A stretch of DNA of 64,000 bases from a virus, in IMG/VR virus record IMGVR_UViG_3300020045_012645, positions 36,022 to 100,021 of that record; one strand, written 5' to 3'. The notes beneath the pieces are model-generated. The model was not told the DNA's origin. It saw nothing but the letters and a program-made list of their open reading frames with translations, and ran no database searches. Position numbers and translations under genes: made by a program. Below are positions 1 to 62,708 of the stretch, in pieces; position 1 is the stretch's first letter, and each line of letters starts with the position of its first letter.

Positions 1-3000
1 AAACATATGGTGAACAAATGTCTTCAGAAAGAAGAACTGGTGCATTCCTGCTTAATCTTGCTAGTGTTAACATGGATGCTGCTATGGGTAAAGCAATACT
101 TCTTGGTAATGATCCACTTGCTAAAGTTATCAAAGATACACTAGTTAATTCTGATGATGTTGTTAAAAAAACAATGATTGAGAAAATTGCTAAATCTGTT
201 GGTCTTGATACTGCAAGAGTTGCTGGTGCTATACTTGAAGAAGCTGGTACTGAAGCTACACAAGCTGGAATAGAGAATGTTTCAAAATATTACAATGCAG
301 ACAAAGGTGTTGGTGTTGCAGATGTATTAGAAAATACTGCATACGATATTGGTGGAGCAGCGTTAATGGGTGGAGCAGGTGGTGCTCAAATGAACAGAAC
401 TGGAGAAGTATCTCGAAAATTATTTGATGGAAGTATTGGTAAACTAGTACCAGAGAATTTCATTAACTCAATAAATAAAGATGTTGATACAAAAGTTCAA
501 TATTCATTTACTCCAGATTTACAGTATACAGAAAGACCTGGTTCTGAAAATTTAAGCAAAGATGAAATGGCTTTCGAAGGTAATCAAACAATTAGTGATA
601 TACAAAAATATTCTACAAAAGCTATTGCTGAATCTATGTATAAAGGCAGAGACATCAAAGATGCTAGAGGAAATAGCATAACTCCAGAAGCTGGAATTAG
701 TGGAATAATAGATACCATTAGACATGAAAATTTAGCTAAAAATAAATATGTTGTTGAAGATAGACAAAACAGAATGAATCAAATAAATTCTATTGAAGAT
801 GAATTAATTAGAAATACTGAAAAAGCAAAATATGAAGAATCACTGTATGGTTCTGATCTAATTGACAAAGAGGAATATGTTAAGAATTTTATCAATACAT
901 ATTCTGCAATGACAAAACAACTAAAAGATCCAAAATTCGATGTTAATGGAGATATTAGAAATAAATCTATAGCAAATACTACCAAAGCATTTATCTCTAA
1001 AGCAAATGCAGAACCAGATAGCTATATCAAAGATAGATTATTATCTGAATTCATCAATGGATATATTGCTGAATCCGCTAAGAATACTATATATGGTAAA
1101 GAAGGTGTTGATATTAAACAATTTGGTTCCGTTGGTGAATTATCTAAAGATGTTATGTTTGGAGATAAAGCAGAAGATTATATTAAAAGTCTAAAAGCTG
1201 TAAAACAAGTAGTATTTGGAAGTATGCCTAAAAATAAAGATGGAAATTCTGGAGAACTAGAAAAAGAACTTGATCAAAAAATTAATGCATTTGAAAAAAT
1301 GTATTTTGATTATAAAAATAAATTAAATGAAATGAAATCTAAAAATCCAGATGCTGATTTAACACTATTAAATGCTAAAACAAAAGAAGATGTTAATAGA
1401 GAAATAATGGATGGATCAGGTTTTATATCTAGTATATTTAAACCATTTAAAAAGTCTATTAATGGTCATATGAATATGATTAGAAAAAATGTTAATAATA
1501 TTAGAACAGATAAAACTGGAGCGCTTAGTCAAACTAAATCTATTGATCAAATGTTGACACAAGTTACTAAATTTAATAAATTTGCTGATACAAGAACAGT
1601 TAATAATAGTGATGCATATGCTGATATATTAGAAGCTAGATATGATGGAGTTAGTGATTCAGAACTTGCTCAAATGTTATTCTCAAGAGAAAATGAATTT
1701 AGTAATATTAGAAAAGACGTAGACGCTTCAAATATTAATGTTGACGAATTACCAAATGAACTTAGAAAAAAAAGAGTTCCTGTTTATAGAGTAGGACTTG
1801 ACAGTAAAAAGATGACAAATGAATTGTCTACTGGCGAGATAATGATTAATGAAGCAAAAGCATTTATTAAAAATTTAGAAGAAGCTAGACTTTTATTAGT
1901 TGGTAAAATTTCATTACAACAAGAATTACTTGGTACTGTAAAAAACAATAAAGATAGAAAAGCTATTGAAGAAACTATTGAAAAACTTCAAGAAAAAGTT
2001 GATGAAATTAATGCTACAATAGCTAATCAAGAAAGCAATACAGCAATAATAAATGAACTAAGAACTAAATTATTAACTCCTGAAGTTGTTAAAAACTTAA
2101 AAAGATTATATGCTCAAAGTAAGTTTAAAGAAGAATCTTATTTTGATAAATCAAGAGTACCAGCTATTGCGACTGAAGCAAATGTAGATAATATTTCAAC
2201 AAATAAAGAAAATGGAGATACAAATGGAACAAAAACAACAACAGAAGATACAAACGTTGAATCAGGAAATCAAGAGTCTGAATCAACAATTGTCGAAGGA
2301 AAAAGAGAATCTGAAGCTAGAACAAAAGAAACTGGAAAAGATGGAACTATTGAAGAAAAAATTAGTCCTACAGTTGAAGAATCTAGTAAAATAGATAATA
2401 CCATATCTGGTACTGATGATAAAGTAAATGTAGTACCAGATATAGTTGAAGAAGAAATTGATGTTGATAGCTTAAGTCTTGATGATCAAATTGCTTACTA
2501 TAGAAAACAAGTAAAAGCTATATCTAAAAGTGAAAGAAAAATTGATGTATTAAAATCTGATATAGACTCTAGAGTTAAAAAGGCTAATGCAGTACTTGAT
2601 ATGCTAGATAGTATTCAAAACAGTTCAATTAAACATTCAGAAAATATTACTAAATATGAAAAAAGAATATCAGAAATTGAAACAAAATTATCTGATAAAT
2701 CTAATAAATTAAGTGAAATTGAAAAGTCAGAACTTAAAAAAGAATCTTCTGGTAAAGCAATTGCGTTAGCAGATGAAAAAAGATATTTAGAATCTGAACA
2801 AAAAAATATTAAAAAGTATAATGGAATCAAAAAGTCAAATTCTAAAAAAGTAAAAGAAATTCAAGTCAAACTTGCTAAGTTAAATGAATTCTCTGATAAA
2901 AATTTGAATGATGGTCAAAAACTATTAATTAACAATAAAATTAGAACATTAGAAATTCAACAACATTCTATTAAATGGAAAGATTCTGTTGTTCAAAAAT

Positions 3001-6000
3001 CATTTGAAACAATTAAAGAATTAGAAGGACAACTTGAAAAAGATAGATTATCTAGTACTGATAGTTTTGAACTTAATGAATTAGAATATAAAATTAAAGT
3101 TTCACAAAGAAGATATGCAAATGATAAATTTGTTGATAAAACAATTAGAGATAAAGCCATTGAAATTTGGAAAGAAGATTTAGAAAAAAAATTAGCGATA
3201 GATGCTACTAAAAATATTGATGAAAGTAGAAAAAAATATTTAGTATCATCTAAAATTTCTGAATCAATTAGAATGTTAGAAAATTATGAATATCATAATT
3301 TATTTATAAATGATGTAGTTACTTATACAACTACTGATAAAAAATATCCACTAATTAGAAGTTCAATTAAAAACAATGATGTTGTTGCTGGATATAATTT
3401 ACTTGATGATATGAGAAAAGGAATTGTTAAATTATCTAAAAAAGATAAAGTTTATTCTGCACTATCAAAAGGTATAACTAAAAAAATGGAAGATAGCGAA
3501 GTTGTAGCTAAATTAATTAGCAATTATTTTGCGTTAAAAGGTAATAGCTATACAAACAAAATCAACAAAGAATATCCAATCGGAAGTGAATCTAGAAGTT
3601 CATTTGATGCTAAACTAAGTAACTATTTATTGTATATACACAATTCTTCATTTGTTGATAATGATTTAATTATTAGAGATTCTTCAAATAAATTAAATGC
3701 AGATGGTAGTAAAGTTGGAGAATCTAAATCTCCAGATATTGTTAATTATGAAATTAAACAAGGTAAAGTAATTGCATTAGATAAAGATGGAAATGTAGTT
3801 GATACTAATCAAAGTGTAAACTTATTATCTTTATTATTTGGAAATGAAACTAAAGAAATTAAACTTGGAAAAGATGAATTAAAAGTTAGCCATACTAAAT
3901 TTCCTAAGTATTTTGCTGAAGTTGTTAAGGTTGAATCAATCAAAGAGATCAGTAATATGTATAAAATATTGATTACTAATCCAAATACTGATACTGAAAC
4001 ATTTGATGGTATATGGGGAATTGATCCATCTAGCGATAACGCTGAAGAATTAAGAACTGAAGTTTATGAAAACTATTTATCAAAAGGAATTATTCCTGAA
4101 TCAGTTATTGTTAGAGCATTGGGTCAAAGAATATACAAACAATTGCCTATTACATTTGATAGAAATTTATTAGAAAGATATACAGAAGAAACTATTATAT
4201 CTCAATTAGGAATATATGCTATTGGACAATTTGAGAATGAATCAAATTCTGTTAAAGTAAATATTGAAGACGAAGTTAAAGAATATGGTATTTCAAGATG
4301 GAAAGAGATTAATCCAGTAAATAAAAAACTTGAAACACAAATGATTAAAATTGGCGATAAAACTATGAATGCTATTCAACTTCCTATGAATGAGCAAGCT
4401 ATGAAATTATTAGTTGATTTATCTGAAACTCTTGATTATTTATCTGTTTCTGAAGATAGAAAAACTCCTAGTTTTGAACCAATAACAAGAGTACCAGATA
4501 CAATTAAACATAAGAAAACTAAGTTATCTGATACTGCAATTGAAACTATTAAAGATTATCAAAGTATTGCATATAAATTTGAAGATAATATTACTGAAAT
4601 GTACAATCTATGGAAAGATGATAATACTAGAAAACTATCTTATATGTATGCTGGTATAGATACTCCAATGATTGAAAAAATGACAAGTAGTGAAATAGAA
4701 AAAGCATTGACTAAAAATAGAAATGAAAGACTTGAATTAGACTCATTAATGAAGTTCTATGAAGAAGCTGGTACTGATAAAGAATTTTATTTACCATGGG
4801 ACTTTGTTACATCTGGAAGATATATGGTTAGTTCAAACATAAATCCTCAAGGTAGTAAAATTACTAGATTTTTAGTTAGTACAGAAGGTACTAGAACAGA
4901 TATAACATTAAAAGCTAGAGATGGTGTTGTATCAATTGATGATAAACAATTAGGAATGATTAAAAGATCACTTGCTCAATCGTTAGATTATGGATTAGAT
5001 AAAGACTTGGACTTATTTGTTATAGACAAGATGGAAAAAGATATCAAAATAAGCGATGACCTTATTGTAACATTTGGAACTAGTCCAAAAGCTAAAGTAA
5101 TTAGTGATGCATTTAATTATTTCAAAGAAATCATTTTATCTGGTACTGATGGTAAAGCGTTATCTGAGTTAACAGAAGGTGCTAAACTTGTTGAGAAATT
5201 AACTTTAAAAGGTATTTCAGAAGAACCAGAATTTGAAGGATTTCATGCTGTACAAACTATTAGAGAGTTGGCTAAGTTAAGCATTAAAGCTGATGAATTG
5301 AAAGAAGCATCATTGAGTGTTGGTTCTGAGAAAATTAACCATGAAGAATCTGTAGGCACTCATTTTGTTATAGAAGCCGATGGTATTACATCTGGAATGA
5401 TGATTACGCTTGCTCAAATTATGAGTGATGATGCAATTGCATTATTTGAAAAAGGTGGTATTTATACTGAAGAATCTGTTGAATTTTGGAATGAAATCAC
5501 TCAGGCATTTGAAAAAGCTGGATTAATTAAAACTGAACATTTAGCTGATCTAAAACAAGAAGATGGTTCATATAAAATTACTCATGGATTATTGAATAGA
5601 ATTGGTAAAGTAATTTCAGATAAAAATAATAAAGAAAAAGTTGATTCAGTATTTGAAAAAGACGAGAATGATACAAGAAGAACCAGAGCTGGCTTCAAAG
5701 ACTTCTATAATACTATAGCTTCATCTGTTACTAAAGATTTACCAGCAATTAGAAAAGCATTAGAAAAAGATTATTCTAAAAAATTAGATAAATATAACAA
5801 TATGGAAGATGGATTTGAAAAAGACAATTTTTATAAGTATGTAAATCAAGCATATTTGTCTGTAGCGTTGATTGATGTTGTTGGTGCAGAAATTAGTAGG
5901 TCAATGGCTAAAGATCCTGTAATGGTGTTCATATACGGTTCTAGTACAGGAAGTATCAAGAATAAAATTTTACAAAACTTAGTTAAATCTACAATTGAGA

Positions 6001-7553
6001 AAAAGATTAAAAAATTATCAGATGAAGCCAATGCTTCTAAAAGTGGATTTATTAAAGTTGATGAAACATTCGTAAATGTACTTAATGCTATGAATATTCA
6101 ATTAAATAAAACTCAAGGATTATATGGTGTTGCAACTATTCCTAATACTTCAAAAGTCGTAGACTATACAAGAAATATAAATGGAGACATAGATGAAAGT
6201 GTTGTTAAGAATCTAGAACCAGATGTATATGATGGATACGATGGATATGTAAAAATTAATATTAGAGATTTACATAAAGTAAAAATAGATGGATCTATGC
6301 TATCTGATATTGCTATACCATCTTTAAATTCATATGGTGCTGCATTTGAGAAAGCATTTGATGATAATTTTGCCTTTATTGGTGAATATAGAGATTCTAT
6401 CAAAGCACTTGAAGTTGTTAGATTTGAAATATTTGATTTTAAATTTAAAGAAAAAGTTACTTCATTAATTAAAGATAGAAGTACTTCAGATTTTGCTTAC
6501 AATCCAACAAATGAAGAACTTGATGTAATCCTTCAAGAATTAATAAACGAAGGTTTTGGACATGTTATTAAAGATATAAATGGTGGTTATCATTCATTTG
6601 AGAAATCACAAGTTGAAGATTCTATGAATAGAACAAGTTTAAGAACTCACAATGAAAATAATTTAAGAGATGACAGTACAACATCTGCATCAATTGACAT
6701 TAGAAAAGAAGTTGTAAATACAGGAGCAGCTCCAGTTACAAGTATTCATAATCAAGATGGATGGCAAGTTAGATATGCTACATTAAAAACTGGTATTCAA
6801 AATGTATTCGATGCTATTATATCTGGACTAGACAATCACGAAGATGGAACATACTTGTACAATGAAGGATTTAGCAAAGCAAATACTAAACATTCAATTT
6901 TACAAAGTCAATTAGTTGATATGGAAAATATTTTAGATAAACTTGGCTCAGATGGAATTGCTGAGTTATTATCTGGTATTGATGCTTCATCTTCTATAAA
7001 GATATTAGATGTATTTGAAAAAATGACTAAACCATTGGTTAATAAAATGGCAGAAGAAAATTCTGAAAGCAAAAATGGATTTGCAATAGCAGAAGCTAAA
7101 AAAGACATTACTAAACTTGACGCTCTTAGAAGATTTGCAAAAGACACAACTGTGTCATCAAATGAAATACTTGCTTCATTAAATAAAAAAGTAGATAATG
7201 TTGCAATTGCTCACTTGTATGCAATAGATACTGGTAAGCAATTCTCTGGTACTCTTGGTGGATTCAAAGATATGAAAGTAGATACTACTAGAATCTTTAA
7301 TTTTTATAATGATATAATCTATAAAGCAATAAGTATGCTAGATCAAGATTTAGTAGCTGAAGAAACTAATACTAAAACTGGTTTTGGTTATGTAGTTGAA
7401 AATTCATTACTTGGTGATTCTGCTGAAGTAAAAGCAACTAGAAAAAAACTATACAATGAAGCTTACTACAACGCAATAAATCTTGGACTTAAGCCAGATC
7501 AAGTTGATGAAATAATGAAAATAGTAGAAGATCTTATGGATTGTAAACCATAG
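1..7553 (+). CDS. N4-like giant virion-encapsidated RNA polymerase (5'-truncated by window edge)
   Basis: Frame is open back to the window start. Single-subunit RNAP motifs in order: TSGR, motif A FVIEADGITSG, motif B RSMAKDPVMVFIYG (Rx3Kx7YG), motif C QNVFDAI. >2500 aa and nearly Cys-free, like N4 vRNAP. Confidence 0.92.
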   Translation, partial: TYGEQMSSERRTGAFLLNLASVNMDAAMGKAILLGNDPLAKVIKDTLVNSDDVVKKTMIEKIAKSVGLDTARVAGAILEEAGTEATQAGIENVSKYYNADKGVGVADVLENTAYDIGGAALMGGAGGAQMNRTGEVSRKLFDGSIGKLVPENFINSINKDVDTKVQYSFTPDLQYTERPGSENLSKDEMAFEGNQTISDIQKYSTKAIAESMYKGRDIKDARGNSITPEAGISGIIDTIRHENLAKNKYVVEDRQNRMNQINSIEDELIRNTEKAKYEESLYGSDLIDKEEYVKNFINTYSAMTKQLKDPKFDVNGDIRNKSIANTTKAFISKANAEPDSYIKDRLLSEFINGYIAESAKNTIYGKEGVDIKQFGSVGELSKDVMFGDKAEDYIKSLKAVKQVVFGSMPKNKDGNSGELEKELDQKINAFEKMYFDYKNKLNEMKSKNPDADLTLLNAKTKEDVNREIMDGSGFISSIFKPFKKSINGHMNMIRKNVNNIRTDKTGALSQTKSIDQMLTQVTKFNKFADTRTVNNSDAYADILEARYDGVSDSELAQMLFSRENEFSNIRKDVDASNINVDELPNELRKKRVPVYRVGLDSKKMTNELSTGEIMINEAKAFIKNLEEARLLLVGKISLQQELLGTVKNNKDRKAIEETIEKLQEKVDEINATIANQESNTAIINELRTKLLTPEVVKNLKRLYAQSKFKEESYFDKSRVPAIATEANVDNISTNKENGDTNGTKTTTEDTNVESGNQESESTIVEGKRESEARTKETGKDGTIEEKISPTVEESSKIDNTISGTDDKVNVVPDIVEEEIDVDSLSLDDQIAYYRKQVKAISKSERKIDVLKSDIDSRVKKANAVLDMLDSIQNSSIKHSENITKYEKRISEIETKLSDKSNKLSEIEKSELKKESSGKAIALADEKRYLESEQKNIKKYNGIKKSNSKKVKEIQVKLAKLNEFSDKNLNDGQKLLINNKIRTLEIQQHSIKWKDSVVQKSFETIKELEGQLEKDRLSSTDSFELNELEYKIKVSQRRYANDKFVDKTIRDKAIEIWKEDLEKKLAIDATKNIDESRKKYLVSSKISESIRMLENYEYHNLFINDVVTYTTTDKKYPLIRSSIKNNDVVAGYNLLDDMRKGIVKLSKKDKVYSALSKGITKKMEDSEVVAKLISNYFALKGNSYTNKINKEYPIGSESRSSFDAKLSNYLLYIHNSSFVDNDLIIRDSSNKLNADGSKVGESKSPDIVNYEIKQGKVIALDKDGNVVDTNQSVNLLSLLFGNETKEIKLGKDELKVSHTKFPKYFAEVVKVESIKEISNMYKILITNPNTDTETFDGIWGIDPSSDNAEELRTEVYENYLSKGIIPESVIVRALGQRIYKQLPITFDRNLLERYTEETIISQLGIYAIGQFENESNSVKVNIEDEVKEYGISRWKEINPVNKKLETQMIKIGDKTMNAIQLPMNEQAMKLLVDLSETLDYLSVSEDRKTPSFEPITRVPDTIKHKKTKLSDTAIETIKDYQSIAYKFEDNITEMYNLWKDDNTRKLSYMYAGIDTPMIEKMTSSEIEKALTKNRNERLELDSLMKFYEEAGTDKEFYLPWDFVTSGRYMVSSNINPQGSKITRFLVSTEGTRTDITLKARDGVVSIDDKQLGMIKRSLAQSLDYGLDKDLDLFVIDKMEKDIKISDDLIVTFGTSPKAKVISDAFNYFKEIILSGTDGKALSELTEGAKLVEKLTLKGISEEPEFEGFHAVQTIRELAKLSIKADELKEASLSVGSEKINHEESVGTHFVIEADGITSGMMITLAQIMSDDAIALFEKGGIYTEESVEFWNEITQAFEKAGLIKTEHLADLKQEDGSYKITHGLLNRIGKVISDKNNKEKVDSVFEKDENDTRRTRAGFKDFYNTIASSVTKDLPAIRKALEKDYSKKLDKYNNMEDGFEKDNFYKYVNQAYLSVALIDVVGAEISRSMAKDPVMVFIYGSSTGSIKNKILQNLVKSTIEKKIKKLSDEANASKSGFIKVDETFVNVLNAMNIQLNKTQGLYGVATIPNTSKVVDYTRNINGDIDESVVKNLEPDVYDGYDGYVKINIRDLHKVKIDGSMLSDIAIPSLNSYGAAFEKAFDDNFAFIGEYRDSIKALEVVRFEIFDFKFKEKVTSLIKDRSTSDFAYNPTNEELDVILQELINEGFGHVIKDINGGYHSFEKSQVEDSMNRTSLRTHNENNLRDDSTTSASIDIRKEVVNTGAAPVTSIHNQDGWQVRYATLKTGIQNVFDAIISGLDNHEDGTYLYNEGFSKANTKHSILQSQLVDMENILDKLGSDGIAELLSGIDASSSIKILDVFEKMTKPLVNKMAEENSESKNGFAIAEAKKDITKLDALRRFAKDTTVSSNEILASLNKKVDNVAIAHLYAIDTGKQFSGTLGGFKDMKVDTTRIFNFYNDIIYKAISMLDQDLVAEETNTKTGFGYVVENSLLGDSAEVKATRKKLYNEAYYNAINLGLKPDQVDEIMKIVEDLMDCKP

Positions 7554-7582: not shown

Positions 7583-10500
7583 ATGGGATGTAATGTTGAA
7601 AAAGCAAAAGTTAAAATAGCAGATATAATTAATTCAGGAATTAAAAATAATAGTGTATCGAGTTCTGAAAAAGCTATGAAGCAATCAGAACAATTTGCAG
7701 ATATTCTTGACAAAATTAAATCAAATTATGTTTTAAACAAAGATGTAAAAGAAAATGCTAATTCAAATATTACTGAACAATTAGTACCAGCTGAAGAAAA
7801 AGTTCCTGCTGAAAAAGAAACTAAAGGTTCTATGGATAGTAAAACAACTGAGAATATTGATATTATATCTACTGATGTTACAAAGATAAATATTAAAGAT
7901 GAATTACTTGGATTTGTTGCAGCTGGTGCTTCAAAACATGACAAAAATGTTGATATGGATTTCTTTGGAAGTTTTATTGAAACAATTAAAAAAGTATCTG
8001 CTAATTTAGAGAAATATGGATTAGACAAGAATATTGAATTTAGACAACATAAGATGGCTACAGATAGATATACTCGAGGAACATATACGTTTGGTGAAGA
8101 TGTTGCCAAAGACAACAGTCATCTCTCTGGCTCTGATAATGGATACATGTTTGAAATAGATGGTGGAGTTGTAGATATTTATTATGGTAAAGGATTCTAT
8201 AATGAAACTGAAGATGGAATTGTTCAAAATGAATTAAGACAAGATATTTCGTTAAGTACAAATACTGAGTTAATTATGCATGAGATTCTTCACTCAATGA
8301 TCGAGAAAGCATACGATCAAGATAAAGCATTGAATAGAGCATTGTTCTTATTGAAAGAACAAGTTATGAAAAAGATTTCATACAAAGATTTATTAGGAAA
8401 AGATGAAAGTGAAGCTACAAATGCTGAGATTCAATTAGCTAAAGATATATATGCTTATATGCATAATCCAACTGAGTTTTTAGCTTATGCTGCTACTAAT
8501 CAGAATGTGTTTCTTGCAATAAAAGATTTGACGATATCTAATACTTTAATTGGAAAATTTGAAGCTAAGCGTGGAGATACAATTGGTAAATTCAAACAGT
8601 TTTTAAATAAATTTATTGATGCTATAAATAAAGTATATACAGCTTTAACAACTGGTGAAAGTGCTAAGATTGAGTTTGATAAAATATTAAATGGACTTAT
8701 TGAAGTAAATACTAAAATTGAAATTGGTGCATTAGATATTAAAATGCAAAAAGAATTTAAACCATATGCTGCGTTTGGAGTTGGTGAAAAATTCAAGAAA
8801 ACAAATGACTGGATGCTTGAAGCTGAAAAAGGTACATTTAGTAAATTAAAAGATGTATGGTCTGCAGATAGTGTTAGAAACAAAGCTGAAGGAGCTGGTA
8901 GATTTATTGAGTCAATTGGTGATTGGAGAGGACTTCAATGGCTTAGAGATACAAGACTAATATCTGATTTAGTTACTGACATGGTTGAAGATACTACTTC
9001 TGATGGAGTTGCTTGGTTTTATGAATCTGTGCGTCATATCAAGGGTACCAGAGAGAAGGATAAGCTAGACTTTTCTTCAGTTATGAAAAAGAAAGTTGGA
9101 GCTGAATTTGGTGAGTTTAGCAAAGAAGAAAGATCTGCTGTTACATTTATGCTACAAGGAGACTGGAAAGCTCTTGGAGTTAGTTTATCTGAATATAAAG
9201 ATATGTTAACTGACGAATCAAAAGTTGAAGCTAGGATTTCTGACCTTAAGAACCAGATAAAGCATCCTGAATATATCAATCAATCTGCTATGCTTGGATA
9301 CTATTTGGTTAATGGAGAAGCGAAAGGTTCTGCTACTATGAAAAGTGCATATCAAATTGTGCATAGATTTCATACTGGAAAAGAATCATCTCCATTACAA
9401 AGTGATATAGATACTGATTCAATGATTAAATTGGTTGATGAATTGTCTTCATTGTATGCGATTAAATATACTGAAAAAAGTATTAAAGATAATATTGTAA
9501 GAGCTATAGAAAGAGATGCTGATGTTGTTAGTTTTGGAAGTGATACATACTATGCTTACAGATTAAAAGAGCAAAACGGACAACTTGCTATGTTTGGCAA
9601 ATATATGGATAAAGGATATGTTAGAAAATCTGGTACTGTTGACATGAAATTTGATATTATTCCAGAAAGTAAATTAATTAGAAATAGTAAAATATCTGCA
9701 TTAAATCATAAAATTATTAGAGAACTTCCTGAAGTTCAAAACAATATGCATGATGCTGGATTAAATGATTCATTTGAAAAATATTATCTTGTTGTTGAAA
9801 GAGATAGGGATCCAGCTAGAACTCAAGGTGTTCTTGATGATATATCTATTATTGAGCAAGGACAAGAGCTTGCTTCATTTACTGCTGGTAAAGAAATTGA
9901 CTATGCTGACATGAAAAACTATACAATTAGAAGATTTGGTGCACATGAGAAAACATATTTAAATAAACCAATAGATGATAGTATTGAAGCCATGAGAGAT
10001 AGAAAAAGCTATAGCATATCAAATATAGATATTAATGGAAATATTGTTGGATATGCAGAACCAGTTAGTGAAGCTGATAAAATTAATTATGGAAGAATTA
10101 ACAATGATATTGCCGATGTTATTGGAAATACTGCATCGCATATTCAATCTAAAGAAAAAGCATTATTAAATAATCAAAATTTTATTGAATTATTAATAGC
10201 TGATAGCAATAATAATATTGGAACACCTGGTTATGTATTTATCAGTTCAGATTCAAAAGAAATTGAATTACAAAAATACTGGGCAATGATTCCTGATTAT
10301 AGTAGATCATTTATTGAGCATGAAACTGCCGTTAAAGGATTATGGGTTAAAAGAAGTAGGATTAATAATATCGTTGGATATAAAGATGTTAGTATAAGTA
10401 ATATGAAATTGTTTGGATTAAAACTTGAAGATTATCCTCAATGGCAAAAAGCTATTAAGATAGTTGAACATACTTGGAAAGAAATTGCTAGTTCATATAA

Positions 10501-11400: not shown

Positions 11401-11422
11401 AAGTACCAGCTAACTGGTACTT
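11401..11422. terminator. Hairpin at the convergence of the + and - gene blocks, built from two inverted copies of the AGTACCAG motif
   Basis: AAGTACCAG-ctaa-CTGGTACTT between stop codons at 11386 (+) and 11427 (-). Confidence 0.6.
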
Positions 11423-12617: not shown

Positions 12618-12769
12618 CATCTATTAACACCTGTTAAACATACCTGAGAAGGTATGTTAAAAAAATAGAACTGAAATTAATCTATCGCTTCGCTTCGATT
12701 AATTAAGAGTACCAGAGATATTGTTGGACTTTTACTTTTGCAGAAAGTTACATCATCTGGTACTCTTGA

Positions 12770-14860: not shown

Positions 14861-15006
14861 TTCTTCTCCTATTATGCTTTTAGTGTATATAATTTGTAGA
14901 ACCAGATTGTGTGTTTGCTAGAATGAAATTTATTTTGATGTTATCTGGCTCTAGAAAGTACATAAGCTGGTACTCTTGATATGTTTAATCTTAAGTACCA
15001 GATATT

Positions 15007-47414: not shown

Positions 47415-47647
47415 TTATTTATTCCTAATTTTATCTTCTATTTGTTTGAACTCTTGTCTCAATTGTTCCATATAATCTTCTGGTACTGGTGATTGATTCT
47501 CTATTAGTTCTACTTTTTCATTATATAACCATTTATCTGCAAATTCTTCTACATCTTTGTTATAGATTGCACTTATTGCTGTTATTGTATTTCTACCATT
47601 AATTTCTTGAGTAAATAGTAATGTAGTTACTTCGTTGAAATTTATTT

Positions 47648-48118
47648 TCATTTTATACTCTTTAGAATTTTAAATATTTCATCGAAATTGTTATTTAAAA
47701 AAGCTGATTCTATTTGTTTGTATTGTTCTTTGTATTCTACGTAATCTATATGCCAACTTGCTACTTTTTTTTCAAACATAAAGTGAAAATCAACATCCCA
47801 ATTGTTATGATTAACTTCCCATAGTTTTTGAAGCTTGCAATCTCTTGTTGGATAGAAAGCATTAAATGAACCATCTTTTTTTTTATAATGAAATTCTATA
47901 TTGTATGTATTGTGGTCTTTTGCTATAAGTGCCAGATAATTTGATTTTGTTAATTGTATTATATTAACATTTGGAAATAAATCTTTGTGATATGGAGGTT
48001 TTGTTTTTATTTGAATAGTATTTGTATCAATAACTGGTACTGATGACTCTGTAGTGTCTTGTAGGATGTCAAAGATAGTTGATTGATCTTTGTGTAGTAT
48101 AATTTGTTCTTGTGCCAT
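47648..48118 (-). CDS. Hypothetical protein
   Basis: 156 aa, GGAG RBS. Confidence 0.55.
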   Translation of the reverse strand: MAQEQIILHKDQSTIFDILQDTTESSVPVIDTNTIQIKTKPPYHKDLFPNVNIIQLTKSNYLALIAKDHNTYNIEFHYKKKDGSFNAFYPTRDCKLQKLWEVNHNNWDVDFHFMFEKKVASWHIDYVEYKEQYKQIESAFLNNNFDEIFKILKSIK

Positions 48119-48585: not shown

Positions 48586-48812
48586 TGTTATTTTCCTTAT
48601 GTTGAGTATGTAGTACCAGATATGGTTCCTCGTCCCTGTTCCAACTTTGCGTTTAGATTGGAACGAAGATTAAAACTAATTTTTATGAATGAGCGAATGC
48701 AATGAGCGAATGAGTAAAGAATTAGTTTTATGCTCGTAGTGGTTCGTAAACGCAAAGCAACCTATAAAATTCTTTTAAAAATCAAGAGTATCAGAGATAA
48801 TGTAGCTGGTAC

Positions 48813-49262
48813 TTATGACTGAGATTTTTGTTTTTCTTCTATGAATTTCCATTCTCGTTGCAAAACTTCTGCTTCCGATCTATATGGAAGATACATAAAT
48901 GGATTAAGTCTATATACACCTCTATCTACTCTCATTAGTAGTTTGTTGTCAACCATAGCTTTTATTATCATAGAAACTTTTGATTTTGCAACTTTAAAAC
49001 TTTTTGATATTTCAGTAGATTGAATATATATTTCAATTTTATTATAAGTAAATAAATCTCTTATAAACAGTAAAAGCTCCAAGTCTTTACCAGACTTAAC
49101 AATTGATAATAAAACAGTATCATAGTCTTTGTAAACCATTCTAAATCCTCCCCTTATTTGCTTTTTTTCTTTAATTTCCTTATACTCAACATCTTCAATT
49201 TCTCCAGTTATTTTGTTTAAGGTTGGTTGTGTTAAAATTCTCGAAACGGTTGTAAATTCCAT
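48813..49262 (-). CDS. RepL-like winged-HTH replication/maintenance protein
   Basis: EISKSFKVAKSKVSMIIKAMVDNKLL...GVYRLNPFMY; upstream TTAAG..TTAAG..TATGAT promoter and palindrome CTATACCT-N7-AGGTATAG (49289-49311). Confidence 0.65.
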   Translation of the reverse strand: MEFTTVSRILTQPTLNKITGEIEDVEYKEIKEKKQIRGGFRMVYKDYDTVLLSIVKSGKDLELLLFIRDLFTYNKIEIYIQSTEISKSFKVAKSKVSMIIKAMVDNKLLMRVDRGVYRLNPFMYLPYRSEAEVLQREWKFIEEKQKSQS

Positions 49263-49578
49263 TTGTTCTCCTTCTAGAACAATATATGCTATACCTCTGA
49301 CACAGGTATAGTGTAATCATACCAGAGGACTTCTTAATTCATCCTTAACCACCTAAATATCATTGTTTATCATACTTTTACAAAAATCACTTCTTATATA
49401 TATAATAAACACTAACATCTTAGCTGGTACTTATGACCAATTCCTTTTTTTTTAAAAAATTTATAGATACTCGATAGTATGTGGAAAAATCCTGTCGCTC
49501 GTATTTTTTTTCCAGCAGAGCTGAAAAAACAAATACCTTCGCTCGGCATTCTTTCCACATGCTATCTTCACTGACAGG

Positions 49579-51138: not shown

Positions 51139-51432
51139 CTCTGGTACTCCTTGTTAAAATTCCATTTTGTGTTTTTGTATGTCAGCTTTGTTCTTAGCTT
51201 CTACAACAGCTTTTGCTCTTTTTGTAGCAGTTTCTATGTTTGGAGCATAAACTTTGATTTCAGTACCAGATATGATGCCTTTAAATGTATAATTATTGTT
51301 TGATTCATTTGTTAGCATATATGTCATTAGTATAAAATATTCCCTAGTCTAATATATTTACCTTTTATTTCTCTATGTGAGTTAAGTATTCTATTCAAAT
51401 ATATTTTTTTTAATTTAATCACAACTGGTACC

Positions 51433-51861
51433 TTATTTTAGTTTTACTTTTAATTCCCAATATTTATCATATATTCTTTTAGATTGTTCATAATCTATTT
51501 CACAAAGAATATACTCTGTGTTAAATATTCCTTTTGCGTCTATCTTAATATTATTTGTTGGTTGAATATCTTTATATACAAGAAATCTATTTAAATCTTT
51601 GCTATAGTCAACCATAAAAAACAAGTCAGATATATAATTTAATTCAGATGATATAAAATTAAACTGAGTAATTATATTTTTATAATTATGTTTTTGAGAT
51701 ACTGCCCATGTTCCATCTTTTGTTACGCAGTACCAGTGTCTTCTTGAGATACAACTTGCTCTAAATATATATCTTGGTGAAGATGATTGTTCAATATTAT
51801 TTTCAATAGTAAAAGCTTCAAGTTTTTTATTTAATGATAATTTGTCAATATTTAATATCAT
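51433..51861 (-). CDS. Hypothetical protein, local paralog family member
   Basis: MILNIDKLSLNKKL...KDG...YISDLF. Confidence 0.55.
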   Translation of the reverse strand: MILNIDKLSLNKKLEAFTIENNIEQSSSPRYIFRASCISRRHWYCVTKDGTWAVSQKHNYKNIITQFNFISSELNYISDLFFMVDYSKDLNRFLVYKDIQPTNNIKIDAKGIFNTEYILCEIDYEQSKRIYDKYWELKVKLK

Positions 51862-51940
51862 AATCTGGTACTCTTGTTAGAAGTCAAGATGTTTTTGAAA
51901 TGAAATTTTGATACGTGTGACATTTTGTCCCTTTATTAAT

Positions 51941-52698: not shown

Positions 52699-52938
52699 TT
52701 ATCTGGTACTTCCTTATATTAAATTTTTAGAGTTAATTAGAGAATCAATATATTGGGACCGACTCCTCAATTGATTCACTAATGAACTCGTATTGAAATA
52801 AACTAATCAGAATCCGACAAAAGGTAAAGTCATGGAAGTAACTTATAAAATCGGATTAACTGATTAGTTTATAAAATATTTAGAGGTGACAGCTCTATGA
52901 TATTCATTAAAAGGATTGTACATAACAGTGTACAGGTT

Positions 52939-54036: not shown

Positions 54037-54436
54037 TATATCACCTGGGCTTCATTTCTGATATTTCCTTATGGTGTTTTATTCAAGACTACTTGAACCC
54101 AGCTAAGTATTTACTAATTCCAATAAGCAAATGGTGCTACCGTGGAGCAACATGTTATTGGAACCATAAGTACTTATTGTTTTAGTATATATTTGCATAT
54201 ACTAGACTAGTTGAGCTTTAATCAACATCTGGAAATCCCATCCATATTCTTATCGTGTGCCCCGTTATGATAAGTTTCGTAGCCATTTAATCATCTATTC
54301 TTCAAATACCCTTTCGTATTCTCGTATCTCTGTTGCAACAGTTTGGATACTACCTTCTGGTACTCTAGTTTGAAGTCACTACTGATTCCCAATTTTGATT
54401 TATTTTATTAAATCTTTAATTGCATCGAAGAAACTA

Positions 54437-55501
54437 CTATTTGTCAACAGAATCTTCTTTTGATTTATCACAAGTTGATTTATTATTATCTGATTTATCT
54501 TCTTTTGATTTTTCATCTTTTAGTCTTGTAACAACAACTGGAATTTCAGTTGTAATTTCAGAATGCAGTTTATATGCTACGATTTTGTGACCAATTAATC
54601 TATAGTCTGTTGCAGCTTTTTGTTTAATATCTTCAATGTTTTCTGCTGTTGCATTTGCATGTTCAGAACCATCTGGATTGTAAATTGTTACTAAGAATTT
54701 TGGTTTTTTATCATAATCTGATACTCCGAAAATTGAGTTAATAATATCTTGAAATGGCATAATTGCCTCCTTGTTTTGTTTTTTAATTTGTATTGGTTGA
54801 ATGTTTTCTTGAATAATTTGTTTTTCATCATCCGATTTTTTTTTAAATTTATCAATGAAATCTTTACACGAAATATTTGGTTTGTCTATAGATGTCATTA
54901 CTCCAAACCATCTGTTTTTTGCACATCTTAAGACTCCCATTTTTGCATAAAACATACTTCTGATTCTATTTTCGTGAAGAATTGAATCAAACTCTTGATC
55001 ATTATCAAGCATAACTTGTCTGAGTTCTAATCTTTCATTAACTAACGTATTTGAAATATCAACAATATAATCTGTAATTGGTATATCTTTTATTGTTTTA
55101 AGAATAATTACATCTTCTGGTTGAACACCATATTCAAATGTTTTATCAATATGCAGTCCATAGTTGATAGTTCCATCTTTTTGTATGTTGGTTATAGTAA
55201 ATATTTGACCTTTTTTTGGATTACCTTGCTTAGGTACAGAACCATAATCCATATCTTTTAAAAAGATAATATCATCACCTGGTACTGCATGTTCAATAGT
55301 TGTTTCTTTTATGAATCTTCTGCTTTTTCCTGATCCCCAACTTTTATTTTCTTTAAATGAATTGTCGATAATATTAACAATATCTTTATCTTGTCCAATA
55401 ACTAGATAAGGTTTATCTCTTGTTACATACTGATTATCCAAATCTGTATATAGAATTGCATTTCCTGTTTTTGTTTCTATTGGTTGTAATTCATATCTCA
55501 T
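54437..55501 (-). CDS. Hypothetical multidomain protein
   Basis: 354-aa ORF. Confidence 0.6.
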   Translation of the reverse strand: MRYELQPIETKTGNAILYTDLDNQYVTRDKPYLVIGQDKDIVNIIDNSFKENKSWGSGKSRRFIKETTIEHAVPGDDIIFLKDMDYGSVPKQGNPKKGQIFTITNIQKDGTINYGLHIDKTFEYGVQPEDVIILKTIKDIPITDYIVDISNTLVNERLELRQVMLDNDQEFDSILHENRIRSMFYAKMGVLRCAKNRWFGVMTSIDKPNISCKDFIDKFKKKSDDEKQIIQENIQPIQIKKQNKEAIMPFQDIINSIFGVSDYDKKPKFLVTIYNPDGSEHANATAENIEDIKQKAATDYRLIGHKIVAYKLHSEITTEIPVVVTRLKDEKSKEDKSDNNKSTCDKSKEDSVDK

Positions 55502-55504: not shown

Positions 55505-55783
55505 TTATTCCTTTTTGAAATCACAATCTAATCCTGATCCAGTACTTGAAGCGAATATTGTTGTGCAATATCTTCCATGAGAATCAATAAAAGAGTAAGC
55601 TCTTAAATCTTGACCTGATGCATTTATCTGGTACTGATTGCTTTCGATAGTTTTCATTCCTGATAACTGAGCTGACCACCAACTAAATGTTAATCCAGTT
55701 GATTTTGAGATCCATGCAGCTGCTATCAAGAGTACCAGTGATAGTGAGATTACTACTAGCAATATTGTTTTTAATTTTGTCAT
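55505..55783 (-). CDS. Small membrane-anchored protein
   Basis: N-terminal TM segment, C-terminal Cys pair. Confidence 0.6.
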   Translation of the reverse strand: MTKLKTILLVVISLSLVLLIAAAWISKSTGLTFSWWSAQLSGMKTIESNQYQINASGQDLRAYSFIDSHGRYCTTIFASSTGSGLDCDFKKE

Positions 55784-56689: not shown

Positions 56690-57067
56690 TTATTTTACTT
56701 TTCTCTCGATTGTATATAATCTTGAGTCAAGTTTATTATTAATTGATTTTAATCTGTCAATTTCAGATTCTAAGTTATAGATTTTATTTCTAATTCTATC
56801 AATGTCATTAAAGTCAATATTTGATTTTGTTGTAGTTTTTAACTTGTCATTAACTGTATCATTAAAGTTTTTTTGAGCAATATTGAAATCTAATTGACCT
56901 TGATTAACTTTCTCTTGTTCCCAAATGAAATCTTGATAATTTGTATTTTTTTTATTTTGTTGTTCTATGAAGTTAATAGTTGGAGCAATATCATTTTCAT
57001 AGTTAACTGCATATGCAGAAGTCATAAGTACCAGAGTTGATACTAACATTAGTAATAGTTTTTTCAT
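56690..57067 (-). CDS. Exported coiled-coil protein
   Basis: Signal peptide ending AYA; coiled-coil C-terminus. Confidence 0.6.
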   Translation of the reverse strand: MKKLLLMLVSTLVLMTSAYAVNYENDIAPTINFIEQQNKKNTNYQDFIWEQEKVNQGQLDFNIAQKNFNDTVNDKLKTTTKSNIDFNDIDRIRNKIYNLESEIDRLKSINNKLDSRLYTIERKVK

Positions 57068-57131
57068 TTATTTATTTCCTTGTTTTAGTTTCATCATCCG
57101 ACACATTTATCTGGTACTCTTAATATAGTTC

Positions 57132-58581: not shown

Positions 58582-59220
58582 TAGGAGACAAGAATTGGAT
58601 CAGTCTTCTTGTCTAAAATTAAATTTAAATTTAACTTTTTTTTTGATCCAACTGATTTATTTCTTTTTTGCTTTTGTTTTGATGTAATCTGAATATGGAA
58701 TCCATTTAGAAATTCCTTTTTTTTCAGCAGCATTTGCAGTTGTTAAAAACAAACCTGCAACCATTAATAATAGTACTATTTTTTTCATAGTATTTCCTTG
58801 TATATAATTTAGATAGTCATTTCTAATTACCATTATCCGAACGAACAGAACATTAATTATTCTCTATCAGAAATGACTTCAGAATCCGATAGCATTATCT
58901 GGTACTTATGTTTGAAGTCTCCTTGAGGTAAAAATTGTTTTTTGAAATTTTTCTCATTGAAGTTGGCTAATCTCGTTACATACATAAAATGATTACTTTA
59001 TGTGCATAAAATTAGTATAAATTGAATTTTGATCTTAAAAAACAAGTAATTTTGTTTTCATTATAAGAATTTAACTTTTTAATTAAGTAATTTATGTTTT
59101 TAATATCTGTTTTTTTTAATGCTCTACAATGTTTATGACTAGCTATAAAAGCTGGGTTTGTTGCTTTATCCCATCCTCCATCTTGCCTTTTAAATATAAA
59201 GTAATAGTTATCAAATTCAT

Positions 59221-59679
59221 TCATAGTGGTCTCTTGTATGCAAAGTCTGCATTTATTAGTGGATAGTATTTTGCATCTTTTCCATGCCAGTTATGAATTG
59301 AATCATGGCAATCATGGCAAACAGTTGTTAGTTCTGTATAAACATTTTCATTGAATAGATGTCTATATGTTATATGATGACAAGCAGATGTTTTGTATTC
59401 CACGTAGCATCCGCATTGCTGACAAGTGTTTAAATCAATGTCTAATCGTTGTTGTTTTAATTTATACCATTTAGAAGTTTTAAGATATTGTTCGTATGTA
59501 ATGTCACAATCTACATCTGGTACTACATATTCATCATTTTTTTTGATATATATAGTATTGCTTTGTTTTGATTTTCTCATTTTTTGAGAATATGAATTGT
59601 TTTCTTTATTTCTTGATTTTGTAGTATTGTATATCTCACTAGCAATCATCAACAATACTATAATAATTAACACTTCCAT
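59221..59679 (-). CDS. HNH endonuclease with N-terminal hydrophobic segment
   Basis: YLKTSKW..KQQRL..D..CQQCG..CHHITY..VCHDCHDSIH. Confidence 0.8.
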   Translation of the reverse strand: MEVLIIIVLLMIASEIYNTTKSRNKENNSYSQKMRKSKQSNTIYIKKNDEYVVPDVDCDITYEQYLKTSKWYKLKQQRLDIDLNTCQQCGCYVEYKTSACHHITYRHLFNENVYTELTTVCHDCHDSIHNWHGKDAKYYPLINADFAYKRPL

Positions 59680-59681: not shown

Positions 59682-60557
59682 TTAGTATTTATTACTTAGA
59701 ATTTGAGCTAAAACACTTGATGGAACTGTTGCGCCGCTTGACATTTTATGCCCTCCACCATCAAATTGTTGAGCAATAACAGATACATCAGTTAAATGGT
59801 CTAAAGATCTGAATGATATAACTACTGTATCTAATGAAGTATAAAAGAACATAATAGCTGGTACTTCATATTTATTGCAAATAGCATTACCTAGTTCTGA
59901 AATATTTTCTGTTGCATTAATTATTTTGAAATGTTGTCCTAATAACTTAATATCAAAGCATTTATCTACTTTTTCGCTAACTTGTTTGTATTGGGTTTTC
60001 AATGCAATCATTCCAATTCTTTTAAACAAATCAATATTATCTTGATATTGCCAATAAGCATCTTTGAATGATTTGATATTGTTTTTTTCAACTGTAAGAG
60101 CCAGTGCTGCTGATACTTCTTTTGATCCTGGTAATTCCCATTTCCACAAGTCTCTATCTTGAACATATTCAAATAACTCTGGTTCTAATGGATTAGTTCC
60201 TTTTTGTAAATTAAAGAAATCAAATGTAAGCATTGCTCCTGATTGTTCATTATCAAAGATTATATCAACATTGTTAATGTTTAATTGTGTTAAATGTTCT
60301 GCTGTTTTATGATGGTCTATTATATAGATTTCACTTACTTTACACGATAACTCTCTAATCATTTTTTCTGGTAATGAGAAGTCCAGTATATAGATATGGT
60401 CTTCTTCTGCTATTGGCATATCGTATACATTATTAACTTCGTTGTAATGCATTGGATAGAACTCCGCTTCTTCTTCTGCTTCTAGGAATGAACTATGAGC
60501 TATAAAAGCACTTGCTAGTCCATCCATACAGTCTTTATGATATATTACATGATTCAT
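59682..60557 (-). CDS. DHH/DHHA1 phosphoesterase
   Basis: YHKDCMDG, ILDFS, IIDHH, DRDLWKW, SFRS, GGGH. Confidence 0.9.
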   Translation of the reverse strand: MNHVIYHKDCMDGLASAFIAHSSFLEAEEEAEFYPMHYNEVNNVYDMPIAEEDHIYILDFSLPEKMIRELSCKVSEIYIIDHHKTAEHLTQLNINNVDIIFDNEQSGAMLTFDFFNLQKGTNPLEPELFEYVQDRDLWKWELPGSKEVSAALALTVEKNNIKSFKDAYWQYQDNIDLFKRIGMIALKTQYKQVSEKVDKCFDIKLLGQHFKIINATENISELGNAICNKYEVPAIMFFYTSLDTVVISFRSLDHLTDVSVIAQQFDGGGHKMSSGATVPSSVLAQILSNKY

Positions 60558-61472: not shown

Positions 61473-61715
61473 TTTATAATCCTATTTTTATATTATTTGA
61501 TGTAGTAACACCTAATTTATTTAGGAAATTATTTACTAGATATGTTTTATCTTTTTTAACTCTTTTTATATGACATATTTTTAATTTTTCTCTTGGATAT
61601 TGCAATACATCATCCATATCAATAAATCTGGTACTCTTGATTGAACCAATTGTAGTTTCATATGTAATTTCACCTTCATAAAAATTTGCTTTTTTGAAAT
61701 ATGCTTTATGATTCA

Positions 61716-62332
61716 TCATTGAACCTTTCTTATTATTTTTATATATTCTTGAACTTTATCTATTATCCAATAGTTTTTTTTTGCTTCGATACCTTTGTAT
61801 TCTTTTATAGCAGCTCTTTCATTGTTGTTATGTTTTTCCAATAGGAAGTTATATATTTCTATGCATGCTGCTACTGAGTTTTTTGGTATACCTTTTTCAT
61901 CTAGTAGTATATTCCAATAATCTGTTACTCCACATATTCCTTCTGCAAATCCACCTGCGTGCTGAGCATCGTGGTTAAAGAATGTTTCAGTACCAGCTAA
62001 TGCTAATCCATTTACTTTGTCTTTTTCTGAGTATCCAAACGCAACTCCGATATGATACGCTTTAGTTTTGCAGTTTCTGCATCTACTATGTCATTTTGTG
62101 CGATCGTTGCTTCTAGGTACTCTATATACTTATTAAGAGATATAACGCTATTTTCCATACTATCTGATCTAGTATAATAATATACTGTAGTTTCTTTTGC
62201 TTGATATAGCTGATTATTTAGTTTTTGTTGTACTATCGTACCTTCTATATAATAATATAAAATAATAAGGAGTACCAGAGTTGTGGCAACTATAGATAGT
62301 TCTCCATTTAATATTTCTGTTTCTTTATCCAT
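61716..62332 (-). CDS. Membrane-anchored lytic transglycosylase (SLT)-like protein, split by an apparent 1-nt homopolymer frameshift at 62022-62026
   Basis: One extra A joins ...LDTQKK to DKVNGLALAGTETFFNHDAQHAGGFAEGICGV...NSVAACIEIYNFLL...AAIKEYKG, which resembles SLT motifs; the ORF track missed the C-terminal half. Confidence 0.55.
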
Positions 62333-62708
62333 TGTTTATCTCCTAAATTAATTTCAACATCCGATTCAATTGCACTGGTACTCTTGATTATATTAATTTT
62401 CTACAATTTTGTAGCTTCCACAAAAGAATATTTCTTTATTGTTTTTATTTGATATAAACTCAATGCAACTATCATCATATGCAATAAAATTGTTTGTATA
62501 GTCTGCTCTTGATTGATTAAGCGTAATAGAATATTTTGATTTTTCAATTATTTTATCTATTTCCTTTTGTTTAAAACTTGTATAAAATACTAGTAACATG
62601 ACAATTATTCCTGAAAATATTATAGTTGCACTAATTTCATTATATATTTTATCTTTCATGTCTATTTTCCTATGTTAAATTTTCTAGCATCCGATATATC
62701 TATGGAAG

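Follow-up and report, generated by a model that had tools for sequence, protein, structure and literature searches.

The octamer and the genome that carries it

The DNA considered here, a stretch of 64,000 bp that we call the window, spans bases 36022-100021 of the 100,021-bp viral record IMGVR_UViG_3300020045_012645 (whole genome, G000), and is marked throughout by one octamer, CTGGTACT/AGTACCAG, which is the subject of this work. A first-pass annotation of the window, made from the letters alone, had counted about 70 copies by eye and had claimed strong enrichment over chance on both strands; we found exactly 70 exact copies, both strands counted, including one at each position that it had picked out as an example, against an average of 0.60, and no more than 3, in 100 dinucleotide shuffles of the window. 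In the whole genome 106 copies are present (66 forward and 40 reverse; 1.06 per kb), and CTGGTACT is the top-ranked 8-mer by enrichment, at 74-fold over base composition; the reversed word, used as a control, has 0 copies, and a random 8-mer is expected about once per 70 kb. Extended forms recur as well (TCAAGAGTACCAGA 6 times and CAAGAGTACCAG 15 times), and the heptamer CTGGTAC is followed by T in 106 of its 117 occurrences.

Two giant open reading frames (ORFs) match the N4-type virion RNA polymerase (RNAP), and the gene order exonuclease, primase, Sak4-like annealase, DUF669-like ORF and resolvase is that of N4 and of Acinetobacter phage nACB1, with the DUF669-like ORF in the position of the SSB gene of these two phages. 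On these grounds the genome is, judged by its gene content, that of an N4-like (Schitoviridae-type) phage, with a GC content of 29% (25-31% along the window), and an assignment to the crAss-like viruses, considered for its size and for nrdD matches to IAS virus and cr116, was rejected. The record ends overlap by 121 bp, which we read as a circular assembly. No tRNA genes that could point to a host were found in the genome; NrdA, 68-73% identical to Aliarcobacter/Arcobacter proteins, gives a lead to an Arcobacteraceae host and nothing more.

Copies of the octamer lie in every 10-kb bin and, apart from one gap over the nrd genes, at an even density along the genome. The 7.5 kb of giant virion-RNAP ORF contained in the window hold 9 of them, at 244..251 (+, read as AGT), 446..453 (-, VPE), 2156..2163 (-, SRVPA), 4490..4497 (-, TRVPD), 4768..4775 (+, AGTD), 5140..5147 (+, SGTD) and 7246..7253 (+, SGTL), together with an inverted pair at 2407..2439 (2407+, 2432-); the second virion-RNAP ORF has copies at 7783..7790 (-) and 9630..9637 (+). 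Other genic copies were located in the UvrD-like helicase gene (13306..13313, +), an ORF where the word reads SRVPD (16344..16351, +), the helicase-primase gene (28147 and 29035), the SF2 helicase gene (31554 and 32047), the PD-(D/E)XK exonuclease gene (33549) and a thymidylate-synthase/HNH ORF (36195..36202, -, SGTD). They are also found twice in a 270-aa ORF (42083..42090 and 42440..42447, both +), three times in ATPase ORF sequence (43607..43614, +, SSVPE; 44534..44541, +; 45270..45277, -), in an ORF where the word reads SSVPV (48034..48041, +), in small ORFs (16009..16016, -; 23390..23397, -, PGTD; 37424..37431, +; 51262..51269, -) and in ORFs at 39757..39764 (-), 40785..40792 (-), 42789..42796 (-), 51729..51736 (-), 55279..55286 (+), 55628..55635 (+), 55731..55738 (-), 57027..57034 (-), 59517..59524 (+), 59858..59865 (+), 61628..61635 (+) and 62271..62278 (-). 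Intergenic copies lie in the interval between the primase and Sak4 genes (27192..27199, +) and at 33158..33165 (+), 47480..47487 (+), 48612..48619 (-), 49424..49431 (+), 54357..54364 (+), 57111..57118 (+), 58899..58906 (+), 61989..61996 (-) and 62375..62382 (+), and further copies stand at 47009..47016 (+) and 47299..47306 (-).

Within the window 44 of the 70 copies are in ORFs, 22 sense and 22 antisense, and one frame is preferred per orientation, xxA-GUA-CCA-Gxx (VP[DEA]) and xCU-GGU-ACU ([SA]GT), which is the peptide imprint that the first-pass annotation had described. On the ORF map of the whole genome, which is crude, 65 copies fall wholly within ORFs (61% of copies; 0.74 per kb) and the remaining 41 in the 12% of the genome outside them (3.4 per kb), an intergenic density about five times that in genes. 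A codon-preserving null had been suggested as a check, and the excess persists under it: synonymous shuffling at constant codon usage gives 11.8 +/- 3.1 coding copies, codon permutation 3.7 +/- 2.0, and a codon-pair-preserving shuffle that is over-conservative, much of the original sequence being retained, 27.7 +/- 3.5, versus the 65 observed.

Weak conservation extends into the flanks (A at -2, T/G at -1, T then G at +3/+4) and is equal in intergenic, coding-sense and coding-antisense copies; therefore, the flanks act at the DNA level. Indeed, since the coding copies exceed the synonymous nulls, both orientations are equally frequent in genes and the flanks are common to all copy classes, selection on the octamer acts at the DNA level. 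The first-pass annotation had likewise proposed a DNA-level signal read by a protein, and its comparison with DNA uptake sequences (DUS), Chi and HIP1 was apt; replication, the process to which the module and primase evidence considered below points, was absent from those that it listed.

Single-mismatch variants of CTGGTACT mostly occur 0-9 times, at or near background, so that recognition of the octamer is all-or-none and enzyme-like; the exceptions, CTGCTACT (13 occurrences) and CTGGTTCT (33 occurrences), are mostly coding and are without the flanks of the main word. The octamer is not its own reverse complement, only its inner GTAC being palindromic, which sets it apart from HIP1-type palindromes, no methyltransferase-specific search having been made. 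A double-stranded DNA site for a phage regulator or genome organiser, of the kind represented by mycobacteriophage stoperators or by the Noc/SlmA chromosome-organising sites, has to be weighed at this point. It could be bound, for example, by the winged-helix proteins encoded at 11427-12307 or by the winged helix of the primase, and it would suit an asymmetric site that, with its weakly conserved flanks, covers ~14-17 bp in all and is enriched between genes and beside start codons, in a phage with two winged helix-turn-helix genes. Stoperators and start-associated sequences likewise form many asymmetric copies genome-wide, some just upstream of starts, and vary among related phages. However, stoperators are transcription-oriented and mostly intergenic, whereas 61% of the octamer copies are genic and may run with or against transcription; the all-or-none core is not the degeneracy usual for regulator sites; and the word family is conserved from N4 to G000, whereas neither winged-helix protein has a detectable homolog in any relative examined. 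Thus, we consider such a site distinctly unlikely. The two winged-helix genes themselves (MarR/HTH_24-like; 11427-11864 and 11879-12307) lie side by side where the leftward block ends.

Copies closer than 60 nt to each other are inverted in 10 of 10 pairs, versus ~47% by chance, and 9 of these 10 pairs are intergenic. In the window, six inverted pairs fold as hairpins (-11 to -24 kcal/mol, z -4.3 to -5.8), namely the pair within the virion-RNAP ORF at 2407..2439 (-16.3 kcal/mol), a pair with 8-bp arms and a 4-nt loop between the converging late and early/middle blocks (11402..11421; -12.9 kcal/mol, z -5.5), and intergenic pairs at 12708..12764 (12708-, 12757+; -23.7 kcal/mol), 14967..15001 (14967+, 14994-; -14.2 kcal/mol), 26181..26203 (8-bp arms, 7-nt loop; -11.2 kcal/mol) and 37901..37952 (37901+, 37945-; -17.4 kcal/mol). 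Miniature transposon ends were rejected as an explanation, since the pairs occur in both polarities. Furthermore, in about eight genes the octamer replaces or adjoins the Shine-Dalgarno site, 0-8 nt upstream of the start codon. Copies at gene starts and junctions include those immediately 5' of an ATG at a gene junction (17332..17339, +), 2 nt 5' of an ATG (40000..40007, +; mRNA AGUACCAG-AG-AUG), overlapping a stop codon at a junction with the next ATG 3 nt on (45850..45857, +), overlapping a stop codon (48806..48813, +), between a Shine-Dalgarno-like AAGG and an ATG (51141..51148, +), and 3 nt (51865..51872, +) or 4 nt (52703..52710, +) 5' of an ATG. Most genes have ordinary AAGGA/GGAG Shine-Dalgarno sites, and a role as a ribosome-binding site was rejected given these sites and an octamer near the start in only ~8 genes.

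Copies next to start codons and well-folding pairs at gene ends are also what a transcription or RNA signal would produce, the octamer then being a promoter, pause or terminator for T7-like RNA polymerases, or part of hairpins that end or stabilise transcripts; in this context, the middle promoters of LUZ7 are hairpins (PMC9163698). Such a role nevertheless appears very unlikely. Density does not differ between early, middle and late regions, the 9-kb virion-RNAP gene included, coding copies are balanced between sense and antisense, a copy on its own cannot fold into a hairpin, and none of the six inverted-pair hairpins of the window is followed by a U-run. Moreover, N4 middle promoters are AT-rich (PMC4496689), the distribution of RNAP II and virion RNAP among relatives does not follow that of the signal, and the intergenic, upstream and sense placement of a phage RNAP promoter is not what is seen in the window, with 44 of 70 copies in ORFs.

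About 62% of the copies lie on the terminase-encoding strand, in late and early/middle blocks alike, and their orientation does not switch between the genome halves. From the copy at 17332 to that at 23390 the octamer is missing for 6,058 bp, its longest gap, and most of this gap is taken up by the nrdD-nrdB-nrdA genes (17364..22736, -). The similarity of NrdA to Aliarcobacter/Arcobacter proteins and of nrdD to Vibrio phage genes (64% identity) suggests that these genes are recently acquired DNA, and they would lack the octamer because of their recent arrival.

Dialects among phages and counts in the likely host family

Words of the same family dominate several relatives of G000, which are metagenomic records and in part fragments. 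In L009 (81% terminase identity) CTGGCTCT occurs 17 times in 17.9 kb and CTGGTACT once only; G185 (112 kb) carries CTGGTTCC 143 times, G186 (113 kb) has TTGGTTCT 91 times and TTGGTTC 167 times, G187 (40.7 kb) has CTGGTTCT 49 times, and G188 (55 kb) has TGGTTCT 101 times. No dominant word was found in G189 (125 kb), G190 (121 kb) and G191 (74 kb). Six further loci were fetched by their primase alone and all six carry a family octamer: TTGGTTCT plus TTGGTACT in L195, CTGGCTCT in L196, CTGGTTCT in L197 and L198, and GTGGTTCT in L199 and L200. Against the 1.06 copies per kb of G000, densities are 1.27 in G185, 0.8-1.5 in G186, 1.2 in G187 and 1.5 in N4, signal-bearing genomes ranging from 0.8 to 1.8 per kb whatever the word length. 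Close pairs are inverted in 7 of 7 cases in G185 and in 7 of 7 in G186, and an excess of about 60% on the terminase strand is found in most relatives as well (63% in N4). A few homologous sites have been converted in place between G000 and L009, one being CTGGTACT at position 11023 of G000, which is CTGGCTCT at 14049 of L009, with Ser in place of Thr; the majority of sites were gained independently.

The signal extends to the classical Schitoviridae, where the words again number about one per kb and occupy both strands. In N4 (NC_008720, 1-50000) CTGGTTC occurs 76 times in 50 kb, evenly spread and with the virion-RNAP gene included, and its coding copies number 69 versus a mean of 17.4 in synonymous shuffles. 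The corresponding figures, each for 42 kb, are 59 copies of TTGGCTT in DEV (coding 56 vs 8.5), 45 copies of TTGGTTC in pVco-5, where the word also appears as TTGGTTT (coding 41 vs 13.9), 34 copies of TGGTTCC in S6 (coding 31 vs 5.4) and 15 copies of TTTGGTTC in EE36phi1 (coding 14 vs 4.5). The top words of the relatives were picked post hoc, with large z-scores; when all 7-mers are ranked without bias against synonymous shuffles, a TGG(T/C)T-family word comes first in N4, DEV, pVco-5, S6, EE36phi1, nACB1 and G000, and the top words are unrelated to it in the controls T7, NrS-1, G189, G190 and G191. The octamer is the lineage-specific form of a Schitoviridae signal of the general form (C/T/G)TGG(T/C)(T/A)C(T/C), and the opinion of the first-pass annotation that such behaviour is unexpected in a phage has to be given up, N4 itself being among the carriers. 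Since the word family spans these phages, N4 included, its reader is most likely a protein conserved across the family, as judged from these comparisons, with a different lineage of it in G189-G191. We found no description of a genome-wide word in N4-like phages in the open-access literature, and viral contigs scanned for the 14-nt extended motif gave single chance matches only.

A second, palindromic word family (TAGCTA, ATAGCTAT, TATAGCTA) is several-fold enriched in G189, L141, L150 and L153; in G189 the TGGTT-type signal was not found.

With respect to the likely host, a family inferred from NrdA only, the octamer occurs 33-76 times in three Aliarcobacter/Arcobacter genomes of 2.5-3.3 Mb versus 31-38 times for the reversed control, one of the three being above its control (76 vs 34, about two-fold). 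The possibility, raised at first pass, that AT-rich genomes in general might carry the motif as abundantly is thereby answered for Arcobacteraceae, where about 0.012 copies per kb, the control level, compare with 1.06 per kb in the phage. Across 184 Arcobacteraceae genomes the 10-mer ATCTGGTACT is at control level, and an origin as a host Chi or DUS was rejected on this lack of enrichment. The sole mild exception, G083 (2.5 Mb), has 23 dispersed copies of ATCTGGTACT versus 0 for the reversed control (octamer 62 vs 30), which might reflect a repeated element or remnants of phage-related DNA. Because the octamer is not enriched in genomes of the likely host family, these counts point to a phage-encoded reader.

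Consequently, a signal directed at the host, that is, a phage-borne copy of the host Chi or uptake sequence, or a decoy aimed at host defence, seems highly improbable, despite a behaviour that resembles DUS/uptake signal sequences (USS) and Chi and despite dialects that could reflect different hosts. The 184 genomes of the NrdA-donor family carry the word at control level; E. coli, Pseudomonas, Vibrio, Erwinia and Sulfitobacter, whose recombination systems differ, all have phages that carry the word family; and terminase relatives with a different replication module are without the signal. The likeness to DUS/USS, whose properties are given in part by PMC1939737, is nonetheless close. Both occur about once per kb on both strands, in preferred frames and as inverted gene-end hairpin pairs, in dialects 1-2 bases apart between relatives, and both are absent from recently acquired genes. 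However, DUS/USS belong to bacterial chromosomes and are read by a competence pilin, whereas here the carrier is a lytic-type phage, and the enrichment in a competent bacterium that marks an uptake sequence was not seen in the Arcobacteraceae scans.

The replication module and a candidate primase

Only three genes of G000 were detected by tblastn in the strong-signal genomes G185, G186 and G188 but not in the signal-less G189-G191, and encode a helicase-primase (27469..29556, -), an SF2 (RadD/ResIII-like) helicase (30715..32496, -) and a PD-(D/E)XK exonuclease (33193..34092, -). At least five changes of the strong signal have to be assumed on the terminase tree, four of them forced by well-supported branches, and the signal matches the module type in 8 of 8 records of known type. 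By these sequence comparisons, the strong signal among terminase-sharing relatives follows the replication module and not the terminase tree, and the primase tree groups the loci by dialect. No family A or B DNA polymerase was found in six frames of G000, G185 and G186, and PolA is present in N4 and in the terminase relatives G189-G192; the replication module has been swapped within one phage group. A simple contrast of primase present versus absent, with PolA absent versus present, was rejected, as N4 has both PolA and the signal and the signal-less relatives have gp43-like primases; the association is thus with primase lineage and module type and not with having a primase. The readers proposed in the first-pass annotation (winged helix-turn-helix protein, HU, RNAP II, helicase) found no support, and neither RNAP II, virion RNAP nor the UvrD-like helicase tracks the signal across relatives.

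Since the co-occurrence with the strong signal is the same for the SF2 helicase and the exonuclease as for the primase, the word might instead be a Chi-like "self" signal, at which the helicase and the exonuclease, together with the Sak4-like annealase and the RuvC-like resolvase, would stop after resecting ends; phage DNA would be protected and the annealase loaded, and host DNA would be left open to degradation. The module is rich in recombination genes, the octamer resembles Chi as an 8-mer with a sharp core, on both strands and with modest polarity, E. coli Chi (GCTGGTGG) shares CTGG with it, and a word that is not enriched in host-family genomes could mark self. Against this, Chi is read, in the known cases, by SF1-type RecC/AddB domains that belong to host enzymes, and no Chi system encoded by a phage is known to us. 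Chi is read by host RecBCD and is enriched and strongly replication-co-oriented in the host chromosome, neither of which is seen in the candidate host genomes, and protection of the ends would predict a switch of octamer orientation from one genome half to the other, which was not found. Moreover, N4, DEV and others share the word family but have a different exonuclease, N4 gp42 being without a detectable homolog in G000; therefore, a family-conserved reader is likelier than the helicase-nuclease pair, and we regard the Chi-like signal as unlikely. We are distinctly doubtful of a phage-encoded "self" mark with dialects, Chi- or DUS-like, that would be read by the phage replication/recombination machinery, with either process set off by preference on DNA of the right dialect.

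The primase of the module offers the favoured candidate reader. The 695-aa protein is an ortholog of N4 gp43 (22-25% identity over nearly the full length), falls in the PHROG "DNA primase", and belongs to a type with homologs in 479 phage records; to our knowledge, the N4 gp43 primase has never been characterised biochemically. In the predicted structure, which is of good confidence (pLDDT 83), residues 3-350 form an MCM-type AAA+ ATPase (Z 17.8, root-mean-square deviation 4.1, 286 residues aligned to 8ouw_7; Foldseek E 3e-6) and residues 353-422 a winged helix (Z 8-9.6). An AEP-like core follows, with invariant D491, D493, H518 and D532 (DxD, H, D), and then a PriCT-1 helical bundle at about residues 600-695, PF08708 matching 16 of the 26 homologs (best E 1.2e-8). 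Viral PriCT_1 proteins and BT4734-like (AEP) plus PriCT_1 proteins make up the Atlas clusters nearest to the C-terminal 256 residues. Judged by these domains, G000 has a primase that carries a template-specificity domain. Solved structures searched by sequence and by profile gave no AEP match for the candidate, and a fold search with the C-terminal domain model was dominated by generic helical bundles; its sole two-domain match, the RSF1010 RepB' primase (3h20, Z 6.0, root-mean-square deviation 17.6, 155 aligned), was set aside as too weak to use.

Helix-bundle domains of AEP primases read template sequence, GTG in the case of pRN1 ORF904 (PMC8718748). For the NrS-1 primase-polymerase, an AEP enzyme characterised by experiment, the template octamer is TTTGGTTA and synthesis starts one base upstream of it (Zhu et al. 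2017, cited in PMC8718748). The likeness to the system proposed here lies in an 8-nt single-strand template word, whose TTGGTT core matches TTGGTTCT and TTGGTTCA and which is close to CTGGTACT, in its reading by a helical-bundle domain that adjoins the AEP core, and in a host within Campylobacterota, as is likely here. By contrast, the NrS-1 enzyme doubles as replicative polymerase, and the NrS-1 primase, helicase and RecB-like nuclease have no sequence similarity to the G000 proteins compared. By analogy, then, the candidate may "work like" the NrS-1 enzyme, and is not said to "belong to" its group. The sole TTTGGTTA of the NrS-1 genome (L201, AB746912) lies at 17198, ~150 bp downstream of the primase gene, and looks like an origin-type site.

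Other primase sites are GTC for T7 gp4 (TGGTC/GGGTC preferred), GTG for pRN1 and CCAAC for GP55 of phage 1706. Sites of the T7 gp4 type resemble the octamer as sequence-specific starts of primers on the lagging-strand template with specificity from a dedicated domain; at 3-5 nt, however, they are frequent by chance, so that a genome need not be rewritten, and the literature searched gave for them neither lineage dialects nor an enrichment of 70- to 160-fold over a whole genome. Sequence-specific primase sites as such are known; in the open-access papers searched we met no account of a genome-wide word of 7-8 nt, 70- to 160-fold enriched, with dialects across a phage family, N4 included.

Taken with this evidence, we propose the octamer as a putative template recognition/initiation signal for the phage helicase-primase, a proposal to which we give an even chance of being right; that the candidate protein is its reader and the site the start of synthesis is what we infer. 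The PriCT-1 helical bundle would bind the word on unwound single-stranded DNA, and the AEP core would start a primer at or beside it. One site per ~1-2.5 kb on each strand would give Okazaki-scale start points, and sites at this scale are found on both strands along the whole genome in G000, likewise in G185-G188 and N4; the excess of ~60% on the terminase strand fits a directional process, e.g., lagging-strand priming on the displaced strand. Because a chance 8-mer is far too rare, selection would have written the word into genes via codons and even residues, and would have packed it into the scarce intergenic DNA. Close pairs would be inverted because each strand would need its own site, and would double as gene-end hairpins. 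Drift in primase specificity, followed by rewriting of the genome, would yield the dialects of the relatives.

Several points weigh against this proposal. G189, G190 and G191 also encode gp43-like primases, more divergent ones; the helicase-primase, SF2 helicase and exonuclease travel together, so that the phyletic pattern cannot separate them; the agreement of dialect and primase clade may come from shared descent alone; and small fast-evolving proteins would escape tblastn. With regard to the protein, its C-terminal domain was modelled poorly on its own (pLDDT 58), and the AEP fold proposed for residues 440-600 is drawn from motifs and family context. Known primases mostly need only 3-5 nt. 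In NrS-1, TTTGGTTA occurs once in the genome, not ~100 times, and the enzyme has no sequence similarity to the candidate (hhalign probability 0.1%) and the opposite domain order. Finally, the spacing of copies in G000 is not more regular than chance, with gaps that look random and a largest one of 6 kb, and inverted pairs would pair in single-stranded DNA and could hide their sites.

As for the neighbouring genes, a recombination set adjoins the primase (23966-27144) and comprises an HNH endonuclease, a RuvC-like resolvase, the DUF669-like protein and the Sak4-like single-stranded DNA-annealing protein (26488..27144, -, in the position of N4 gp44), mirroring N4 gp44-gp46. A 677-aa ORF at 34590-36623 of the window joins a thymidylate-synthase C-terminal part to an HNH endonuclease domain in its middle, and may represent a homing element inserted in a thymidylate-synthase gene. 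In many relatives the terminase large-subunit gene has an in-frame insertion of ~1.1 kb (L009 8899-10004; P0021, P0035, P0057, P0071 and others), from which G000 is free; the insertion-bearing terminases, of ~1000 aa, match LAGLIDADG/Hint-type Pfam families, and the insertions are probably inteins.

Meaning for the phage family

The signal itself is robust even if another protein is its reader. Should the word be a "self" mark, host DNA and co-infecting relatives of another dialect would be excluded, and a change of dialect would be a reproductive barrier between phage lineages. If, on the other hand, the primase proposal is true, the specificity of a primase would have rewritten an entire phage genome, down to codons and amino acids, and the phage family as a whole, with the model phage N4 among its members, would have been rewritten likewise, in different dialects. 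For hundreds of uncharacterised helicase-primases of the gp43 family, the sequence recognised could then be predicted and the prediction directly tested, and a natural series of specificity changes would be at hand from which to learn how PriCT/helix-bundle domains read DNA. Furthermore, the word would serve as a cheap metagenome signature for these phages, for the type of their replication module and for recently acquired genes, and would be a phage case of the genome-wide signals so far described mainly in bacterial chromosomes.

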